Shown: positions 16,918-35,778, counted from the stretch's first letter. The stretch: DNA of 64,000 nt from Candidatus Omnitrophota bacterium (GCA_041651455.1 JBAZJG010000004.1:72848-136847), one strand, 5' to 3'. Notes: generated from the sequence alone by a model not told the origin. Made by a program: numbers and translations.

Positions 16918-18242
16918 AACGTATCTATCCGATCCTTAAGCTGCTTCTCGAAACCTATCTCGCCCGGCTCGTAATACCTCGACTTCCTTGGCATATACTC
17001 CTGCTCGACGAAATGGCCCTCGAAATCATGCGCGTATTTATATCCCTTGCCGTGCCCGAGTTCTTTGCCGTCCATCGACGAGTCCTTCAGGTGTGCGGGC
17101 ACTTCCATCACGCGGCCCTCCTCTACGTCCTTAAGCGCCTTCTCTATGCCGAGGTATGCCGAGTTGGATTTCGGCGCGCAGGCGATATACACAGCGGCCT
17201 CGGCCAGCGGTATCCTCGCTTCCGGAAGCCCTACGAACTCTGCGACCTGGAACGCCGCGTTCGCCACCACTATCGCCTGCGGGTCGGCAAGACCGACGTC
17301 CTCGGCCGCGCAAATTACTATCCTGCGCGCGATGAACCTCGGGTCTTCCCCCGCGTAAAGCATCTTCGCGAGCCAGTAGAGCACGGCATCCGGGTCGGAG
17401 CCGCGCATCGACTTGATGAACGCGGATATCGTGTCGTAGTGGCCGTCCTCGTCCTTGTCGTATACGACGGCCTTCTTCTGTATGCACTCCTCGGCGACCT
17501 TCAGCGTGATATCTACGGGGCCGTCCTTCGACGCCGGGGTCGTCAACGCGGCCAGTTCGAGCGCGTTCAGCGCCCTTCTCGCGTCGCCTTCGGAGAGTTT
17601 AGACAGGAACTCGACTGCCTGCTTATCCGCTTTTATCGGCATGTTCCCGAGGCCGCGCTCCTTGTCCTTTAGCGCGTTATACAATATCGCGGTTATATCC
17701 GCCTCGGTAAGGGCCTTGAGCTCGAATACGAGAGACCTCGATATCAGGGGTGCCACTATCGAGAAGAAAGGGTTGTATGTCGTCGCGCCTATAAGCACCA
17801 CGACCCCCGCTTCGACGTCCGGCATCAGGACATCCTGTTGCGCCTTGTTGAAACGGTGGATCTCGTCGACGAAGAGTATCGTCTTCCTGCCGTAAAGCGA
17901 GCGGCGCTGTTTAGCGGATTCTATCTCTTTCCTGAGTTCCTGTACGTTGGACGTGGTCGCGTTAAGCTGTACGAATTCGGATTTTGTTGCGTTGGATACT
18001 ACATGGGCGAGCGTCGTCTTTCCGGTGCCGGGAGGCCCGTAAAGGATAAGCGATGTGATAGTGTCCGCCTCGATCGCGCGGGAGAGGAGCTTCCCTTCCC
18101 CGATGATATGGGGCTGGCCCACGAACTCCTTCAGGCCGCGCGGCCTCATCCTTGCGGACAGGGGCTCGGTCCTGGAGGATTGCTTATTTTTCTTCTCGAA
18201 CAGGTCTTTCATAGATAATTTTTCCCCGCCATGCCGTCCCAT
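16893..18242 (-). CDS. rarA: replication-associated recombination protein A (AAA+ ATPase)
   Basis: Walker A GPPGTGKTT, Walker B ILFVDEIHRFNK, MgsA C-terminal helical domain. The true start is possibly the internal Met (MKDLFEK). Confidence 0.85.
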   Translation of the reverse strand: MGRHGGEKLSMKDLFEKKNKQSSRTEPLSARMRPRGLKEFVGQPHIIGEGKLLSRAIEADTITSLILYGPPGTGKTTLAHVVSNATKSEFVQLNATTSNVQELRKEIESAKQRRSLYGRKTILFVDEIHRFNKAQQDVLMPDVEAGVVVLIGATTYNPFFSIVAPLISRSLVFELKALTEADITAILYNALKDKERGLGNMPIKADKQAVEFLSKLSEGDARRALNALELAALTTPASKDGPVDITLKVAEECIQKKAVVYDKDEDGHYDTISAFIKSMRGSDPDAVLYWLAKMLYAGEDPRFIARRIVICAAEDVGLADPQAIVVANAAFQVAEFVGLPEARIPLAEAAVYIACAPKSNSAYLGIEKALKDVEEGRVMEVPAHLKDSSMDGKELGHGKGYKYAHDFEGHFVEQEYMPRKSRYYEPGEIGFEKQLKDRIDTLWKRKQKP

Positions 18243-18417
18243 CCCGATAATTTTTGAACCTAAGCTTTCGCTAAGGTGGGTGCCCTGTTAACGTTTTCAT
18301 GCCCCCCGATGGATCGGGGTCCGCAATCCGACGTTAAAGCCGGGCTCCCTATGTATTTTGGTGTTGGCTCAAAATACATCCGGACAGATCGAGCACAGCA
18401 GGGAAATTTTCAATAAA

Positions 18418-22699: not shown

Positions 22700-24436
22700 T
22701 CACTTCCTTGCTTCCACTTCGCCAACGATCTTCTTTATGAAATCGGCGAGTTTCATCGCGCCGAGATCGCCCTTGCCCCTCTCCCTGACGGAGACGCTCT
22801 CCGTCTGGGCTTCCTTGCCTCCGACAACCAGCATATACGGGACCTTTTGCACTTCCGCGTCCCTTATCTTATGCTGCATCCTGCCGCTCTTGTCGTCTAT
22901 CTCTGCCCGTATGCCCCTGTCGCGCAATGCCTGGGCGGCCTTGCCGGCGTATTCCTTGTGCTCATCGGATATCGGTATTATAACAGCTTGGACCGGCGAA
23001 AGCCATACGGGAAATGCGCCGCCGTAATGCTCGATGAGCATCGCGAGGGTCCGCTCGTAGCAGCCTATCGACGACCTGTGTATTACCATCGGGGTCTTCT
23101 GCGAGCCGTCGCTGTCCACGTATTCCATCCCGAACCTTCCGGGAAGCGCAAAATCGACCTGTATGGTTATGAGCGTATCTTCCTTGCCGAAAACATTCTT
23201 GAACTGTATGTCCAGCTTCGGCCCGTAGAACGCCGCTTCATTGTCGGCTTCGGCGTACTTGAGCTTTATATCGTCGAGGATCTTCTTCATCACCCTCTGG
23301 GACTCTTCCCAGGCCTTCGGGTCGTCTATATATTTTTCCTTGTTCTTCGGATCCCATTTCGAGAACCTGTACCATATCCGGTCTTCGATGCCGAGGGTCT
23401 TCATCACGAACTTGACCAGATCGAGGACCTTCTTGAACTCATCCTCAAGCTGCGCGGGCATGCATATGATATGCGCGTCGGCCAGGGTGAACTGCCTTAC
23501 CCTCGTCAACCCGTGCATCTCGCCCGACGTCTCGTTGCGGAACAGCACCGCGTTCTCGCAATACCTTAAAGGCAGGTCCTTGTAGCTTCTCGTCTTGGCC
23601 TTGTATATCATGAACTGGAAAGGGCAGGTCATCGGCCTCAGGGCTAGCACTTCGTCGCCTTCGCCTTTGCCGTTTATTATGAACATGCCTTCCCTGTAAT
23701 GGTCCCAGTGGCCCGATATCTTATAGAGGTCGCTCTTTGCCATATACGGCGTCTTCGTGAGCAGGTACCCTCTCTTCTCTTCCTCGTCCTCTATGAACCT
23801 TTGCAATATCTGGATGATCTTTGCACCCTTGGGCATTATAAGGGGAAGGCCCTGCCCTACGGCCTCGTTCGTTGTAAAGAGCTCCAGCATCCTGCCAAGC
23901 TTATTATGGTCCCTCTTCTCCGCCTCTTCCTTGTCTTTAAGGTAACTGACTAATTCTTCTTTCGTCGGAAAAGCCGTCCCGTAGATGCGCTGCAGCATCT
24001 TGTTCTTCTCGCTGCCGCGCCAGTACGCCCCGGTCGCCGAAAGCAGCTTGAACGCCTTTACCTGGCCGGTCGACTCTATATGCGGCCCCTTGCAAAGGTC
24101 TATGAAGTCGCCGTCCTTATAAAGGGTCATCTCCGCTTCGGGAAGGTCCCTTATAAGCTCCACCTTATATTGCTCGCCGATCTTCTCAAAGAACTTTATC
24201 GCCTCGTCCCTCTTCATGGAGGAACGCTCGAACTTCAGGTTATCCTTTATTATCCTGGACATCTCCGCTTCGATCCTGGCAAGGTCCTCCTCCAGGAAGG
24301 GCTGGGGAGAGTCGAAATCATAATAAAAACCGTCCTCTATCGCCGGCCCTATAGCCAGTTTTACGCCCGGATACAGCTTTTTTACGGCCTGGGCCATAAT
24401 ATGTGACGTTGAATGTCTTAGGGTATCCAGTTCCAT
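22700..24436 (-). CDS. thrS: threonine--tRNA ligase (lacks the N-terminal TGS domain)
   Basis: Starts at RHSTSHIMAQA...GPAIEDGFYYDF (editing domain), followed by class II core and anticodon-binding domain. The track ORF start is extended into the tRNA-Val gene, so the start was reset to MELDTL at 24436. Confidence 0.88.
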   Translation of the reverse strand: MELDTLRHSTSHIMAQAVKKLYPGVKLAIGPAIEDGFYYDFDSPQPFLEEDLARIEAEMSRIIKDNLKFERSSMKRDEAIKFFEKIGEQYKVELIRDLPEAEMTLYKDGDFIDLCKGPHIESTGQVKAFKLLSATGAYWRGSEKNKMLQRIYGTAFPTKEELVSYLKDKEEAEKRDHNKLGRMLELFTTNEAVGQGLPLIMPKGAKIIQILQRFIEDEEEKRGYLLTKTPYMAKSDLYKISGHWDHYREGMFIINGKGEGDEVLALRPMTCPFQFMIYKAKTRSYKDLPLRYCENAVLFRNETSGEMHGLTRVRQFTLADAHIICMPAQLEDEFKKVLDLVKFVMKTLGIEDRIWYRFSKWDPKNKEKYIDDPKAWEESQRVMKKILDDIKLKYAEADNEAAFYGPKLDIQFKNVFGKEDTLITIQVDFALPGRFGMEYVDSDGSQKTPMVIHRSSIGCYERTLAMLIEHYGGAFPVWLSPVQAVIIPISDEHKEYAGKAAQALRDRGIRAEIDDKSGRMQHKIRDAEVQKVPYMLVVGGKEAQTESVSVRERGKGDLGAMKLADFIKKIVGEVEARK

Positions 24437-24451
24437 AGTAATAAAATTAAA

Positions 24452-24528
24452 TGGTGGGCCTAAGAGGACTCGAACCTCTGACCTCTTCCATGTCAAGGAA
24501 GCGCTCTAACCAACTGAGCTATAAGCCC
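24452..24528 (-). tRNA. tRNA-Val (anticodon GAC)
   Basis: Cloverleaf with acceptor GGGCTTA/TAGGCCC, anticodon loop TTGACAT, T arm AGAGG-TTCGAGT-CCTCT, CCA encoded. Its own TTGACT-17-TATAAT promoter lies at 24542-24570. Confidence 0.85.
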
Positions 24529-24600: not shown

Positions 24601-24639
24601 ATTAAATTACAAAGGCCGGGGATCTCGGGATCCCCGGCC
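24601..24639 (-). terminator. rho-independent terminator after PEP-CTERM gene 24688-25329
   Basis: Perfect GC hairpin GGCCGGGGATC-cga-GATCCCCGGCC followed by TTTGTAATTT on the minus strand. Confidence 0.7.
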
Positions 24640-24687
24640 ATCTTCCTCGGGTTAGTTGGGGTTGAGGAAGAACATCTTAATAAACGC

Positions 24688-25329
24688 TTATTTAACCGCT
24701 TTTTTCCTTAATCCGAGCAGCCCTACAAGGCCCGATCCGAGTAAAAGAAGGCTCGTCGGCTCGGGAACGGTAAACTGCGCGTCGTCGAACCACACCGTGC
24801 CGGTGGCGCTTGTGCCTGTCCCGGGAGCAAGCAGGGTCAGACGGTAGTCTATATACGCCGCGTTGGCAGGCGCTGTCCTCTCAGCCTCTGACCAGGAGCT
24901 TAAGCTCTGGTACTGCCAATCCCCCGAACCTGAGGTCTGATGGACTATACCTATGCCGCTTCCCAGCTCTTCCTGGCTTGCGTTAAGCCATTTGCACTCC
25001 AGGTACGCCTCTATGTTGCTGAGGTTCTCCCATTTCATCCATACGCCTCCGTCAACGACATCGCCGGGATTTACTGCGAAGATCTGCTTCGCTCCGGCCA
25101 TCTCCCATGAATCGGTCGTAGGACCGGCAGAAAGCTTCAGCGCCTGGCTGCCTTCGTGGACCGAATCGGCAGCGTCGTAATCGATCGTCCACTGCGGGCC
25201 CCAGTTGTAATCAAGCCACGGCCCCTGTCCTGCGCCTTCGAAACCGTAATCTCCGACAGCGTTTGCGCATGCAAAAGAAGGCATTGATATGGTCGTTAAA
25301 ACTGCTAATACGGTAAATAATCCCTTCAT
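24688..25329 (-). CDS. PEP-CTERM-anchored secreted protein with CBM4/9-like carbohydrate-binding domain
   Basis: Signal peptide. C-terminal VPEPTSLLLLGSGLVGLLGLRKKAVK has the PEP motif, a hydrophobic helix and a basic tail. Confidence 0.8.
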   Translation of the reverse strand: MKGLFTVLAVLTTISMPSFACANAVGDYGFEGAGQGPWLDYNWGPQWTIDYDAADSVHEGSQALKLSAGPTTDSWEMAGAKQIFAVNPGDVVDGGVWMKWENLSNIEAYLECKWLNASQEELGSGIGIVHQTSGSGDWQYQSLSSWSEAERTAPANAAYIDYRLTLLAPGTGTSATGTVWFDDAQFTVPEPTSLLLLGSGLVGLLGLRKKAVK

Positions 25330-25370
25330 TTGTTCACCCCCTCTCTTTTTCCTTGGTTTAAAGGTCTATT

Positions 25371-25462
25371 TGTAAACGCTTACATATAAATCTAAAAAAT
25401 AGAGCGCTGTATGTAAGCGCTTACATTACTGAAATGTTATCATCCGTATCATTGAATGTCAA
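25371..25462 (-). promoter_or_regulatory. promoter (-35 TTGACA 25457-25462, -10 TAACAT 25434-25439) plus two cre/LacI-type palindromic operators: TGTAAGCGCTTACA (25412-25425) and TGTAAACGCTTACA (25371-25384)
   Basis: The first is a perfect 14 bp palindrome overlapping the predicted TSS. The second, imperfect copy sits ~40 nt upstream of the start codon. Confidence 0.5.
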
Positions 25463-25467
25463 GATTA

Positions 25468-25824
25468 TTATTTTGCTAATTTTGAGGAATAAATGAGGGT
25501 CTTTACGATAGCTATCGCGACGAATAACGTCGATGACCCGCCCCCCAGGAACACGACTATTGCAGGATGCGTATCGTCGCGTACCGGAATAAGGAAGCAG
25601 GCTATCGCCGTTACCAATACCGGAACGGACCATATTACCATCTGGCGGCCGCCGTATGCATTTATCTCATACCATAATTCAGGCGACTTGAACGCTTTCG
25701 GCAACCTGAACCCGTACCAGTAATTCATCGGTATCTTGCGCTTGGCGAGGGGGATACCAAGGGCGATAAACAGCAATCCCATTACCAGATTTATAGCGAT
25801 AAATGATGCCTGTGTATTTCCCAT
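25468..25824 (-). CDS. small membrane protein, possibly SdpI/YhfL-family
   Basis: Three to four TM helices and NYWYGFRLPKAFKSPELW motif. Preceded by a TTGACC-17-TATACT promoter. Confidence 0.35.
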   Translation of the reverse strand: MGNTQASFIAINLVMGLLFIALGIPLAKRKIPMNYWYGFRLPKAFKSPELWYEINAYGGRQMVIWSVPVLVTAIACFLIPVRDDTHPAIVVFLGGGSSTLFVAIAIVKTLIYSSKLAK

Positions 25825-25870
25825 CTTCTTCCCTTTTTGATTAAGTATACACCATAAGTCGGACCCGGTC

Positions 25871-25906
25871 AAAAACAAAAGGGCGGGGATCTCGGGATCC
25901 CCGCCC
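25871..25906 (-). terminator. rho-independent terminator after PEP-CTERM gene 25953-26579
   Basis: GGGCGGGGATC-cga-GATCCCCGCCC hairpin followed by a T-tract on the minus strand. Confidence 0.7.
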
Positions 25907-25952
25907 CTCTTCCTCGGGTTAGTTGGGGTGTTTGAGGAAGATATTTACCGGA

Positions 25953-26591: not shown

Positions 26592-27122
26592 TTAGTTTCC
26601 TTTTTCTATAGTAGCGTCAAAATCATCGAAACAGGCCTCACCTGTGGAACCGGCCACGCCTCTTGCGTATCCGAGCACCCTTGCTTCGATCGCTCCCGCA
26701 GGCGCTTTGCCGTTGACCTCCAGCTTCTTCCAGGCCGTGGCGCCCCTGATATGTTCGCTCTCTTTATGCCCTGAGCTCAAAGGGCCTGCGCTTCCCCAGA
26801 ACTCAAGCCGGACAAAGGCCTCGGCGCCGTTGGACAACGCTTTCGAGTCCGGGCTCATTACCCATGCGCTGGCTTTCACCATCTCGCCGGGATTGACCGG
26901 TATCTGCTGCCCATAACAACCCTGCCCTAATCCCTCGACCTGCCTGCATGCCGCTTTCTCCCCGCTGTATTTATACTCGGATGTCACTATCCCGCTCGTG
27001 GCCTGGTCGTTCCAGTTGTACCAGCTCTCCTCTTCCGATTCGAAGCCGGGATTGATCATGTCATTGGCATGGCAAGCGGAACATATCGACATGGCAATAA
27101 CCGCCGATAACAGCTTCTTCAC
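26592..27122 (-). CDS. secreted CBM4/9-like protein without PEP-CTERM anchor (GTG start)
   Basis: Signal peptide, MINPGFESEEESWYNW domain start, no C-terminal sorting signal. Co-transcribed with the 25953 gene. Confidence 0.5.
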   Translation of the reverse strand: MKKLLSAVIAMSICSACHANDMINPGFESEEESWYNWNDQATSGIVTSEYKYSGEKAACRQVEGLGQGCYGQQIPVNPGEMVKASAWVMSPDSKALSNGAEAFVRLEFWGSAGPLSSGHKESEHIRGATAWKKLEVNGKAPAGAIEARVLGYARGVAGSTGEACFDDFDATIEKGN

Positions 27123-27236
27123 TTGTTCACCTCCCTCCTTTACTCATAAAATAGTTTCTCATTACTAAATTGTTTTACTATACTGCAAAAATATACCACC
27201 TGCGCATACCATTGTCAAGCGTAATAAATTGTTATT

Positions 27237-28937: not shown

Positions 28938-29149
28938 TGGTATCTCCTTTAGTATATGAGTTTCTTATTACTAAATTGTTTTACCAGTTAATAAAGATAC
29001 CACCGGAATAAGCTTTTGTCAAATATATATTATTTTGCGAAAAAGGGTGGAATGCGGGAAACGCCTAGAATAGAAAAAGGCTCCCAATTCCTGGAGCGGA
29101 AGGTTGGAAGCCTTTTTCGTCCCCCTACTTCTAACTTAACCTGCTTTAC

Positions 29150-30430: not shown

Positions 30431-30573
30431 ATCGATACGTGTTTATTAAACAAACGTAATAAACTGTTTCTTCATTCGGTTGATTTTGTATTTTAGAAGT
30501 TGCTATCGTAGAATATATATCGACACGTGTTTACGAATGCATATAATATACCTTAAGAATGTAAATGTGTCAA
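30431..30573 (-). promoter_or_regulatory. promoter (-35 TTGACA 30568-30573, -10 TATATT 30545-30550) plus two ACACGTGT-core operator repeats (30519-30532 and 30431-30444)
   Basis: ATCGACACGTGTTT sits at the predicted TSS and ATCGATACGTGTTT ~20 nt before the start codon. The core is a palindrome. Confidence 0.5.
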
Positions 30574-30649: not shown

Positions 30650-30692
30650 TGTCCGGTTCTCCCTCGGGTTATTGGGGATTGAGGAAAAATAC

Positions 30693-31340: not shown

Positions 31341-31463
31341 TTCGACACGTGTTGAGTTATTCATTACAATAATCCCTTGCCGGAATTATAGGGATTTATT
31401 TAGAGTGATTCGACACGTGTTTAATTGTTAATTTATTATGCATTAATTAAGTGCCTGTGTCAA
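31341..31463 (-). promoter_or_regulatory. promoter (-35 TTGACA 31458-31463, -10 CATAAT 31435-31440) plus two TTCGACACGTGTT operator repeats (31409-31421 and 31341-31353)
   Basis: Same architecture as the 30431-30573 unit. The repeats flank a small hairpin, ATCCCT-n12-AGGGAT, in the 5'UTR. Confidence 0.5.
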
Positions 31464-31494: not shown

Positions 31495-32517
31495 TTAGGC
31501 GGGCTTGACGGACTCCCTCCGGATGTATTCCGGAGTGAATATAACCGTATCATTCTCTACCTTTTTCCCCGATACTATATCCAAAAGCATCTGTGCGGCG
31601 GTCTTGCCTATCTCGACCAGCGGAAGCCTCATGGAACTTAACGTCGGAGATCCCGGGGGAAAAGGGAACATGTCGTTAAAACCTATTACCGAAATATGCT
31701 CGGGGACCGAAAGGCCGGCATCACGTATCCTTCTTATTGCGGCAAGCGCCATGACGTCGTCGGAAGCCACTATGCCGGTGATCCTCGGCTCCTGCTTCAA
31801 CAGGATCCCGGTAGCTTCGTATGCCTTCTCATAGATGAACAACCCTTCGGCCACGAGGTTTTCGTCGAATCCCGCGCCAGCTTCAGATAGCGCTTTTTTA
31901 TATCCGGCGAGCCTGTCCTGGTCGAGTTGGAACCTTAACGCGCCGCTGAGGAACGCTATCCTCTTATGGCCGGTGTCGAGCAATTCTTTTGTCGCCCTGA
32001 AAAGGCCTTCCTTGTTATCTATCAGGACTTTCGGTATCTTTATGCCCTTGATGTACCTGTTCACAAGCACTATCGGGAACTTCTTTTCGAAGAGCGTCGT
32101 CACATCCTTCTCGAGCGCCTCTTCGACAAGTATGCACATGCCGTCGACCCTTTTTTCTTCGAAGGCCTTCATGTAATACGGGGAAAGCGGCTCTTCTTTT
32201 GGCTTGATCGCGCGGGTCAACTGGAAATAATAACCGTTCTTCTCCAGCACTCCGGCGATACCGCTGACCACATGGCTGAAATACGAATAATATATGTCCT
32301 CGAAATCCTTTACCACCACGGCGATATTAAACGTCTTCCTGCTGACAAGGCTGCGGGCTATCACGTTAGGAGTGAAATCGAGGTCCGCGACCACCTTGCT
32401 GACCCTCTCCTGTGTCTTCTTGCCCACCTTCTGAAGGTCCTTCCCGTTAATGACCCTCGAGACGGTGCTTATGGACACTTTCGCCTTTTTGGCTATGTCT
32501 TTATATGTGTATGCCAT
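31495..32517 (-). CDS. LacI-family transcriptional regulator
   Basis: N-terminal HTH (YKDIAKKAKVSISTVSRVING) and periplasmic-binding-protein-like sugar-binding core. It is the last gene of the operon 34923 to 31495. Confidence 0.85.
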   Translation of the reverse strand: MAYTYKDIAKKAKVSISTVSRVINGKDLQKVGKKTQERVSKVVADLDFTPNVIARSLVSRKTFNIAVVVKDFEDIYYSYFSHVVSGIAGVLEKNGYYFQLTRAIKPKEEPLSPYYMKAFEEKRVDGMCILVEEALEKDVTTLFEKKFPIVLVNRYIKGIKIPKVLIDNKEGLFRATKELLDTGHKRIAFLSGALRFQLDQDRLAGYKKALSEAGAGFDENLVAEGLFIYEKAYEATGILLKQEPRITGIVASDDVMALAAIRRIRDAGLSVPEHISVIGFNDMFPFPPGSPTLSSMRLPLVEIGKTAAQMLLDIVSGKKVENDTVIFTPEYIRRESVKPA

Positions 32518-34271: not shown

Positions 34272-34923
34272 TCGATAACATGAAATCATCCAGGTATACG
34301 GTGGCTCCCGGGCCGTTGCCTACATCGGCTCCGAAGGCTATGCCGATATTGTCGAGAGATTTAACGTCTATGCCGGACTTGCGCAGTCCGGCTACGGATA
34401 TCGTTATCTTCTTCCATTCCTTCGTGGCCGATTCAACCGATATCTTTGTCTGCGGCATATAACTCGGCGCGTGGCTGTCCCTGAGGACTATTTCCATGTT
34501 CTCGCCGCCGTTCTCGCCCTTTACCCAGAACTCTATGTTCTTGAAGCCGGATATGTCCTTGCTCTTGACCTTCTTCGGGACTGGAACGGCATCGGTTACC
34601 GGGCCCATATCTATCGAAAAACTTCCCCATGCCTCTGATGCCTTGCTTCCGAGGGCGTTGACAAGTCGGAACGATTGCTTCCCGCTATGAACGTTCCTCA
34701 TATCATACCCCGGCACGTCCGGAGCATAGTACCAGCTGAACGGGGTGTTCTTGTCTTCCCAATTAGGTTCCAAAGACCCGTAGACCCCGACCTCGCCTCC
34801 GAGGTTGTTCGGATGGCCTTCAAAATCCGCTATGACTGTGATGCTCTCTTCGGAAAACGATTGCCCAGGAATAAAAAATATAGCGACAGTTACCGCCGCT
34901 ATAAGAAATATCAGTCCTTTCAT
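34264..34923 (-). CDS. secreted CBM-like (jelly-roll) protein
   Basis: Signal peptide. Domain resembles the beta-sandwich modules of the two glycosidase-like proteins. Preceded by a TTTACA-17-TATAAT promoter. Confidence 0.45.
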   Translation of the reverse strand: MKGLIFLIAAVTVAIFFIPGQSFSEESITVIADFEGHPNNLGGEVGVYGSLEPNWEDKNTPFSWYYAPDVPGYDMRNVHSGKQSFRLVNALGSKASEAWGSFSIDMGPVTDAVPVPKKVKSKDISGFKNIEFWVKGENGGENMEIVLRDSHAPSYMPQTKISVESATKEWKKITISVAGLRKSGIDVKSLDNIGIAFGADVGNGPGATVYLDDFMLSNE

Positions 34924-35014: not shown

Positions 35015-35668
35015 CTAGCTTTTCTTCCTTCTACCGAGACCGAGAAGCCCAATCAGCCCTGTACCGAGCAAGAGCATGCTTGCCGGTTCCGGAACGGGCG
35101 CAAACGACATGTCATCCACCCACAGCGTGCTGTTAGGCGAATACGCGCCGCTTGTCGAAAGGGCGACGACGGCAGATACCTTCGTCGTCCCTGCAGGGGC
35201 AGCCGCGGTCGTGACAGAGAGAGGGTGCCATGTGTCTGCCGTTACCGAGTTGTCGAATAAGGCACTCTCATCCACGCGGATGACGTTGCCAAGCGAGTTG
35301 TACCATTTGACCTGAAGCTTGGCTGAACTGCCGTCCTTAAGCGTATCAGCGGAATTCCACAGGAAATAACCATTCAGTAAGTAGGGGGCACTGAAATCGA
35401 TCCCTGTGAAGTCCTCGTTGAAATACGCATAATCGGTGTTGTTTCCGCCCCACATGACAACCTTCGCTGCCTTGGCGCCGCTCATTGCAACCGAAGAATC
35501 ATAGAATGAGTCGCCATTAACGCCGCCGCTCCACGTCCATGGGCCGTCCTTTAAAGCAATAGCCGATCCGCCGAGCTCAAAACCCGGATCGCTCAGGAGG
35601 TTGGCAGATGCCTGCGATGAAAACAAGCCGAATACCGCTACCATCAGTATTACCCTGAATATCTTCAT
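35015..35668 (-). CDS. PEP-CTERM-anchored secreted protein with CBM4/9-like domain
   Basis: Start reset to MKIFRV (SD AAAGGAGGTGA). C-terminal VPEPASMLLLGTGLIGLLGLGRRKKS. Confidence 0.75.
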   Translation of the reverse strand: MKIFRVILMVAVFGLFSSQASANLLSDPGFELGGSAIALKDGPWTWSGGVNGDSFYDSSVAMSGAKAAKVVMWGGNNTDYAYFNEDFTGIDFSAPYLLNGYFLWNSADTLKDGSSAKLQVKWYNSLGNVIRVDESALFDNSVTADTWHPLSVTTAAAPAGTTKVSAVVALSTSGAYSPNSTLWVDDMSFAPVPEPASMLLLGTGLIGLLGLGRRKKS

Positions 35669-35691
35669 TATCTCACCTCCTTTCATTTATT

Positions 35692-35778
35692 GGTTAAACG
35701 TTTTCCTTATAACCCTTTAAAAAAAGGAAAACGATTTCCTTTGCTTTGAAATTTTATCATATCCCAGAATAAAGTCAA
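35692..35778 (-). promoter_or_regulatory. promoter (-35 TTGACT 35773-35778, 16 nt spacer, -10 TAAAAT 35751-35756) plus two GGAAAnCGTTT operator-like repeats (35726-35739, 35692-35706)
   Basis: GGAAATCGTTTTCC and GGAAAACGTTTAACC both have an AACGTT-type centre typical of LacI/PurR-family operators. Confidence 0.45.

Follow-up and report, generated by a model that had tools for sequence, protein, structure and literature searches.

A conserved, putative LacI-family operator pair with an intervening T-tract at the promoter of a surface-anchored carbohydrate-binding protein gene in Omnitrophota

Results

Organisation of the PEP-CTERM locus

The DNA analysed here, a stretch of 64 kb referred to below as the window, comes from an Omnitrophota metagenome-assembled genome (MAG), and nearly all of its genes lie on the minus strand. 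The features of interest are collected in Table 1. The regulated gene encodes a protein whose PEP-CTERM anchor is recognised by Pfam with an E-value of 4.8e-7. Its AlphaFold model has a pLDDT of 81.8, and Foldseek matches this model to the carbohydrate-binding module (CBM) families CBM61, CBM16, CBM4 and CBM22 with E-values of about 1e-7; as judged from the model, the product has a CBM fold. A homologue with 55% identity in another MAG is flanked by genes for a GH94 phosphorylase and a sugar ABC transporter.

Of the seven CBM-type paralogues in the locus, six have a PEP-CTERM anchor. Five further PEP-CTERM paralogues, an anchor-less copy (26592-27122) and a CBM30-like relative are found between 25.9 and 35.7 kb, and the cluster adjoins genes for exosortase EpsH, EpsI and a TPR protein. 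The description of the regulated gene in an earlier note as the first PEP-CTERM gene holds for plus-strand coordinates only; when the direction of transcription is followed, it comes last among the seven CBM-type paralogues. A literature search for Omnitrophota together with PEP-CTERM returned nothing related and, to our knowledge, transcriptional regulation in this uncultured phylum of very small cells has barely been described.

The CBM-type paralogues are divided among five promoter units, and every unit combines a strong promoter with one of four operator types. In every PEP-CTERM/CBM transcription unit a separate TTGACA-17-TAnnnT promoter is present, and a leader motif comes after it. Apart from motif (a), that of the regulated gene, the leader motifs are motif (b), GTAAAACAATTTAGTA, with one copy at each of two promoters; motif (c), AAACACGTRTCGA, with two copies at each of two promoters; and motif (d), GGAAANCGNTTnCC, with two copies before the gene at 35015-35686 and one inside the start of the operon that encodes a LacI-family protein. 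Motifs (b) and (c) are also kept in the orthologous locus L092. Since the leader motifs differ, several regulators appear to control these paralogous surface lectins.

Two further observations concern the ends of the genes. A 3'UTR element, TTCCTCAAnCCCCAAYTAACCCGAGGRAG, with the potential to form a hairpin (CTTCCTC...GAGGAAG), follows three PEP-CTERM genes and is present in L092 too; in two of the three it precedes terminators (24614-24639 and 25877-25910) with a common stem core, GGGGATCCCGAGATCCCC. A tRNA gene (24455-24528, minus strand) lies between the regulated gene and thrS, and because it is overlapped by the mechanically called open reading frame 22700-24496, which has a TTG start, the true start of thrS must lie further downstream.

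Table 1. Positions of features in the window
Feature	Position	Strand	Description
-35 hexamer TTGACA	25457..25462	-	Promoter scan; invariant in 6/6 aligned orthologous upstream regions
Extended -10, TGA-TAACAT	25434..25442 (hexamer 25439-25434)	-	Promoter scan: 10/12 matches, TG present
Operator 1 (op1), TGTAAGCGCTTACA	25412..25425	-	Perfect 14-bp palindrome, TGTAAGC/GCTTACA
Weak hairpin AGCGCT-TACATAC-AGCGCT	25403..25421	-	Terminator-like match; 5' arm is the centre of op1
T6 run	25394..25399	-	-15 to -10 relative to op2; conserved in all orthologues
Operator 2 (op2), TGTAAGCGTTTACA on minus, TGTAAACGCTTACA on plus	25371..25384	-	About +43 to +56 of the predicted transcript
Ribosome-binding site GAGAGGGGG	25337..25345	-	Read from the sequence; conserved in the orthologous upstream alignment
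Regulated gene	24688..25329	-	213 aa; signal peptide, CBM-fold beta-sandwich and PEP-CTERM anchor
Strong intrinsic terminator closing the transcription unit	24614..24639	-	11-bp stem with 9 GC pairs, then a T-rich tail
3'UTR element copies	24642-24669, 25922-25937, 30671-30684	-	
LacI-family regulator gene	31495..32517	-	Pfam LacI and Peripla_BP; 340 aa; recognition helix VSISTVSRV
Motif (d) pair, GGAAATCGTTTTCC-T7-N12-GGAAAACGTTTAAC	35693..35739 (35726-35739, 35693-35706)	-	After the promoter of the PEP-CTERM gene 35015-35686
Third motif (d) copy	34852-34865	-	Inside the start of the LacI operon
Other leader-motif sites	27163-27178, 28969-28984, 30432-30444, 30520-30532, 31342-31354, 31410-31422	-	

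The promoter and its two operators

The promoter scan recovers the minus-strand TTGACA-17-TAACAT promoter described in the earlier note, and the 17-nt spacer ends in TGA, which makes it an extended -10 promoter. Across the aligned orthologous upstream regions, the TG and the TA...T of the -10 element are invariant, the hexamer reading TAACAT, TATTAT or TAGACT. The 14-bp perfect palindrome TGTAAGCGCTTACA (op1) is likewise present where it had been reported, over the predicted transcription start: it begins 9 nt past the -10 hexamer and so spans approximately +2 to +15 of the predicted transcript, the start being placed by prediction about 7 nt after the -10 element. The second copy (op2), which has one mismatched pair in the palindrome, had been put some 40 nt further on; the copy is there, and the start-to-start distance is exactly 41 bp. 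From the end of op2 to the ATG at 25329 there are 41 nt, with the ribosome-binding site GAGAGGGGG inside them. Read along the minus strand from the -10 element, the order is TTCAGTAA, TGTAAGCGCTTACA, TAC, AGCGCT, CTA, TTTTTT, AGATTTATA and TGTAAGCGTTTACA.

The pattern TGTAARCGYTTACA has two exact matches in the 64 kb of the window where 100 dinucleotide shuffles give an expectation of 0.00, and a chance origin of the exact site pair is thereby excluded. Allowing up to two mismatches to the motif raises the number of matches in the window to three, against 0.38 expected. The third, degenerate match at 18286 falls within the 6S RNA gene (18219-18407, minus strand, 96 bits) and is probably a chance occurrence.

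Immediately upstream of the promoter lies a gene for an SdpI/YfhL-family membrane protein (25468-25878, minus strand), which has its own promoter at 25872-25844 and whose stop codon, at 25468, is 5 nt ahead of the -35 hexamer. No terminator was found in the short gap that separates this stop codon from the -35 hexamer, and as the end of the SdpI-like gene leaves no room for one, read-through into the operators is to be expected.

Conservation of the leader in Omnitrophota

Orthologous upstream regions from five distinct genomes, in which the encoded proteins share 63-93% identity, conserve the -35, the TG and -10 elements, both operators, the AGCG of the hairpin 3' arm, the T-run and the ribosome-binding site, while the remaining spacer positions have diverged. 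The operator consensus across the five genomes is [T/A]G[T/A]AA[G/A]CG[C/T]TTAC[A/n], with op1 conforming to [T/A]G[T/A]AA[G/A]CGCTTAC and the right half, CG[C/T]TTAC, being nearly invariant. Four of the genomes have an op1-op2 spacing of 41 bp, and L092 has one of 42 bp. None of the orthologous regulated loci has a LacI gene adjacent to it, and some 100 kb of other Omnitrophota loci contain no further op1-type pairs. We observed in passing that a MAG titled 'Planctomycetia' (L002, CAZYUB010000001.1) and proteins labelled 'Dehalococcoidales' (the P0125/P0148 cluster) are 85-98% identical to Omnitrophota sequences and share their synteny; these labels are probably wrong or the sequences mis-binned.

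The two copies might instead act in the mRNA, forming a 16-bp stem in the 5'UTR through which translation, cleavage by RNase III or the stability of the mRNA is controlled. In the folded leader (-25.7 kcal/mol, z -4.2) op1 does pair with op2, but two copies of one palindrome are always mutually complementary, so that such pairing is automatic. There is no covariation between the sites: the change of T3 to A in both sites of L003/L081 and the variability of position 14 break pairs. Moreover, the stem would leave the ribosome-binding site free, and the same 14-mer is found at non-transcribed positions, as isolated sites and at op1-op2 spacings of 28-58 nt. Neither the gathering threshold nor E<=1 gives an Rfam match in 25330-25470, and a known RNA family of the riboswitch or leader type was rejected on these grounds. 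We prefer to read op1 and op2 as DNA operators and regard control by an RNA stem as very improbable.

Assignment of the operator pair to the LacI family

A metagenome scan with the pattern AATGWAAGCGYTTAC-N15-45-TGWAAGCGYTTAC identified 79 loci with the same promoter-op1-op2 module. At least 17 of the 79, in other phyla, have a LacI-family gene nearby, whereas in Omnitrophota the sole LacI gene in the vicinity tracks another motif. The module lies directly upstream of lacI in L007, L012, L029, L061 and L072, and L034, L064, L068, L070 and L042 have lacI directly ahead of the regulated promoter. The recognition helix of these LacI proteins, VS[L/I]ATVSRV, resembles those of CcpA (VSMATVSRV) and GalR (VSVATVSRV). 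The targets of the metagenomic modules include TonB-dependent receptors, a GH1 enzyme and a mannitol-dehydrogenase-family enzyme, many of the loci being TonB-dependent receptor genes with a LacI gene nearby. The LacI protein encoded after an identical module in L012 was considered as a guide to the Omnitrophota repressor and set aside, its relatives being from Ignavibacteria/Bacteroidota.

The assignment to the LacI-family operator type made in the earlier note is borne out by the shape of the sites, their CG centre, their position and their duplication, by their conservation in five distinct genomes, by the metagenome context and by the CBM fold of the target protein. Taking the footprint in the five genomes together with the metagenomic module, its LacI genes and its sugar-related targets, we conclude that these sequence comparisons give good support to the identification of the motif as an operator of the LacI family, which several phyla use in pairs close to the promoter. 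A literature search for the exact 14-mer found nothing.

Comparison with the Escherichia coli GalR operators OE and OI, the PurR boxes and LacI O1 reveals the same 14-bp inverted repeat with a central CG and the half-site TGnAAnC. Placement over or after the start (predicted in the present case), two copies per promoter and sugar-linked targets are also common to them. The differences are that the host here belongs to Omnitrophota, that the target is a PEP-CTERM-anchored CBM protein instead of an enzyme or transporter, that no regulator gene is adjacent, that the spacing of 41 bp gives no sign of phased looping, and that a T-tract lies at a fixed offset from op2. A LacI-regulated TonB-dependent receptor locus for carbohydrate use, SuxR/suxA, is reportedly found in Xanthomonas, and the module described here occurs at many metagenomic TonB-receptor genes with LacI nearby. 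We know of no operator-T-tract-operator layout described for such LacI-regulated TonB-receptor loci.

Some metagenomic loci carry the motif in a different form, as arrays of 10-36 copies of TGTAAGCGNTTACA and TGAAAACGTTTTCA (L079, L011, L063, L067, L038, L066, L025 and L058). In L079, 36 sites are contained in 7.5 kb, and the copies cluster upstream of, and not after, the TTGACT-17-TGnTATAAT promoters of many small open reading frames (60-180 aa). This might represent a mobile element or a phage-like region with control of the LacI/CcpA type.

The sequence of op1 is identical to WTGNAANCGNWNNCW, which we take to be the idealised consensus of the catabolite-responsive element, cre. The label 'cre' that the earlier note attached to the palindrome is nevertheless unsupported in a MAG of Omnitrophota whose only LacI-family protein in the 64 kb of genome covered scores 193.8 bits against the CcpA model TIGR01481, for which the cutoff is 442.35; this protein thus falls outside CcpA by the NCBIfam cutoff. 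As in Firmicute cre sites, including downstream roadblocks, the downstream copy would act as a roadblock. The Omnitrophota module differs from these in that its host is not a Firmicute, that the window has no CcpA equivalog, and that it is present at one promoter and not spread across the window. As judged from these 64 kb, op1 and op2 are not cre sites for CcpA. A looser version of the idea is that they are cre-like sites for a global Omnitrophota catabolite regulator of CcpA type, acting with phosphorylated HPr, and not for a local sugar-specific repressor. Such a global regulator would account for the match of op1 to the cre consensus and for the absence of an adjacent repressor gene at every orthologous locus, and the nearest homologues of the local LacI protein outside Omnitrophota are CcpA/RbsR-like proteins of Firmicutes (35-38% identity). 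We consider it improbable, given the score of the only candidate in the window and the presence of a single site pair in 64 kb, with none in the 100 kb of other Omnitrophota loci. Roadblocks formed by CcpA at downstream sites have been reported (PMC10310618).

Which LacI-family protein is the repressor?

The only LacI-family gene in the window lies 6 kb upstream in the same locus, and its product had been put forward in the earlier note as the regulator of op1 and op2. It belongs to an Omnitrophota-specific orthogroup whose members share 49-100% identity; no protein outside the orthogroup exceeds 38%. The recognition helix VSI[S/T]TVSRV and the hinge NVIARSL are invariant in the orthogroup, which shares a synteny of PEP-CTERM, CBM30-like, approximately 590-residue protein and LacI genes. 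The members also have a 2-residue insertion past the recognition helix (NGKDLQKVGKKT). In Kappaea-like genomes, genes for GH94, GH35/42 and GH65 enzymes are found downstream of the orthogroup lacI, which in these genomes (L084, L086 and L091) itself lies downstream of a gene for a PF10091 (glycoamylase-like) and CBM9 protein. The gene neighbourhoods hint at a beta-glucan or oligosaccharide as the effector of the orthogroup.

The motif that accompanies this orthogroup is motif (d), a CG-centred palindrome GGAAANCGNTTTCC with the consensus GGAAA[A/G/T]CG[A/T]TT[T/A/G][C/A]C, also written GGAAANCGNTT[T/A][C/A]C. It adjoins orthologues of the local LacI in six genomes and has three copies in the window. 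It stands directly upstream of the orthologous lacI in L084, L086 and L091, and in L084, L086, L090 and the window it forms promoter-proximal pairs before the first gene of the cluster. Within 10 kb of the orthologues in L084, L086 and L088-L091 there is no TGTAAGCGCTTACA-type site. The genome GCA_030695925.1 contains both motif types, which are distinct there (L090 versus L092), as they are in the window. On this sequence evidence the motif (d) pair is probably the operator of the local LacI.

It could still be argued that the local LacI binds both TGTAAGCGCTTACA sites and possibly the GGAAANCGNTTTCC sites as well. Besides its location in the window, its helix VSISTVSRV also occurs unchanged in a protein annotated as CcpA of Clostridium butyricum and is close to those of CcpA and GalR; motifs (a) and (d) have the pattern nGnAAnCGnTTnCn in common; the site in L088, GTAAAACGTTTTCC, combines the two half-sites, and the operators of L003 read TGAAAG. 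Against this, orthologues that are 51-63% identical and have the same helix are found with motif (d) upstream of lacI or, in L084, L086, L088 and L090, upstream of the gene cluster, with no (a)-type site within 10 kb. In the window, three (d) sites surround the LacI operon. Further, the ..CTTACA of (a) and the ..TTTCC of (d) are kept distinct in two lineages with fully diverged spacers, the window and GCA_030695925.1. We therefore doubt that the local LacI serves op1 and op2, although the common nGnAAnCGnTTnCn core and the hybrid site of L088 give cross-binding a modest probability. Because its orthologues, with an identical helix, track motif (d), the repressor of op1 and op2 is probably another LacI paralogue encoded in the genome.

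A T-tract at a fixed distance from op2

Between op1 and op2 lie a hairpin and a T-run which are conserved and which the earlier note did not mention. The hairpin of the window, AGCGCU-N7-AGCGCU, has a 6-bp stem with 4 GC pairs (-7.7 kcal/mol, z -3) and is followed by three nucleotides (CTA) and T6. It is weaker than canonical terminators and was flagged by the terminator scan. Its 3' arm, AGCG, is invariant in an otherwise diverged spacer. In L092, the hairpin has one compensatory change from G-C to A-U, which is statistically weak, as 95 of 500 shuffles do as well.

Non-redundant promoter-op1-op2 modules were assembled from all loci, 40 entering the tally of T-runs and 41 the positional profile. 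In these 41 modules, many of which are paralogous or orthologous TonB-receptor loci and thus incompletely independent, the frequency of T reaches 0.95 at position -15 and 0.93 at -14 relative to op2; the sequence is T-rich from -18, the T frequency is no lower than 0.63 between -17 and -10, and it drops to 0.05 at -9. A GC-rich stretch at -23 to -19 precedes the T-tract, and the same 41 modules have nothing comparable to the T-tract downstream of op2. A run of at least five T is present in the spacer of 32 of the 40 modules and missing from the other eight. The 3' end of the run lies 9-13 nt before op2 (exactly 9 in 15 modules), the distance from op1 to the run varying from 0 to 27 nt. Of 30 modules, 22 have a minimum-free-energy hairpin that ends no more than 4 nt from the T-run (mean z -1.5), and there are clear terminators in L049 and L090; in short modules, the op1 palindrome doubles as the hairpin.

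Motif (d) pairs (window 35707-35725, L084, L086 and L090) and the type (c) operators of L092 have the same layout, so that the T-tract rule extends over three operator types and several phyla. Isolated operators and op1 have no T-tract; the tract is thus not needed for binding and is strand-specific, and a role as a requirement for repressor binding was rejected. A second promoter in the spacer was also rejected: TAATAT-like -10 words occur only in some TonB-receptor spacers, and none is predicted in the window.

The main alternative to a transcription signal is that the tract bends the DNA and thereby aids contact between two operator-bound dimers, or within a tetramer, in a micro-loop. It does sit between two operators, with its centre about 21 bp, or two helical turns, from the centre of op2, and in L054 an A-run occupies the equivalent place. 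The data fit this model poorly: the tract is anchored to op2 only, the op1-op2 spacings of 28-59 across the modules have no helical phase, a GC-rich stem arm lies ahead of the tract, and the strand bias is pronounced, with T in 32 modules and A in one. In addition, the 340-residue local LacI has no C-terminal extension past the CcpA-length core and so lacks a tetramerisation helix; with the unphased spacings, this speaks against looping by a LacI-type tetramer (O1-O2/O3). Overall, a DNA bend seems an improbable explanation for the tract, which, strand-specific and anchored to op2 behind a GC-rich arm, resembles a weak intrinsic terminator.

Discussion

LacI-family repressors occlude the transcription start when a dimer is bound at a start-site operator, and a dimer bound further downstream forms a roadblock. 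A roadblocked polymerase reportedly stalls approximately 13-16 nt before the obstacle in vitro with EcoRI-Q111 and LacI, proteins other than those considered here. We propose that the Omnitrophota leader places a surface-anchored carbohydrate-binding protein under sugar-responsive repression, with the roadblock coupled to a terminator, a reading that we hold to be moderately probable. In this model, we infer the transcription start, repressor binding, the coupling of roadblock to termination, the effector and the identity of the repressor. A conserved sigma-70-type promoter would be followed by two operators for LacI-family repressor dimers. Occupation of op1, over the predicted start, would block the binding of RNA polymerase or its escape from the promoter, while op2, 41 bp downstream, would be a roadblock for polymerases that have passed op1 or are reading through from the SdpI-like gene. 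The weak hairpin and its U-run would lie close to the active site of a polymerase halted at op2, so that the stalled polymerase may be released; bound repressor would, in effect, make a weak terminator efficient. When a sugar effector frees the repressor, initiation could proceed and the weak terminator would be read through.

Natural roadblocks formed by PurR, GalR and CcpA have been reviewed (PMC10310618). Modelling of the LacI roadblock indicates that readthrough is set by the speed at which stalled polymerase is removed, which occurs with a half-life of about 11 s and for 90% via Mfd, and that roadblocks near the promoter leak more than expected (PMC4132739). Removal that depends on Mfd and leakiness close to the promoter together provide a rationale for a built-in terminator, which would remove the stalled polymerase without Mfd.

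The proposed module has evident relatives among known systems. Lac repressor reportedly acts as a transcription terminator or roadblock, an effect said to have been described by Deuschle et al. in PNAS in 1986, and in both cases an operator-bound LacI-type protein would halt an elongating polymerase that then needs to be removed. There, release is mainly by Mfd, whereas here a weak hairpin and U-tract lie near the predicted stall site, an arrangement that would make release factor-independent. The TRAP, PyrR and BglG/SacY attenuators likewise have a weak leader terminator whose efficiency is set by a protein, but those proteins bind RNA and choose between alternative folds, whereas in the present case the binding site would be in the DNA, downstream of the terminator.

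At least three operator types in Omnitrophota show the T-tract layout, as do a lacI promoter of Ignavibacteria/Bacteroidota type and many TonB-receptor promoters. It is tempting, though at this stage rather speculative, to regard the T-tract and weak hairpin as a widespread and undescribed device in which a LacI-family repressor serves as a conditional termination factor, halting the polymerase precisely on the U-tract, with release independent of Mfd or Rho. The term 'U-rich' is absent from the 2023 review of roadblocks (PMC10310618), and a limited literature search found no description of a fixed T-tract. The LacI-type double operator itself belongs to a known kind, and a surface-anchored CBM protein is an unusual target for such an operator pair.

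If the T-tract does mark roadblock-coupled termination, it would explain how promoter-proximal roadblocks can be tight, and synthetic repressible terminators could be built on the same simple principle. For the organism, the distribution of four operator types over the paralogues suggests a surface glycan-binding repertoire that is switched by the sugars sensed.
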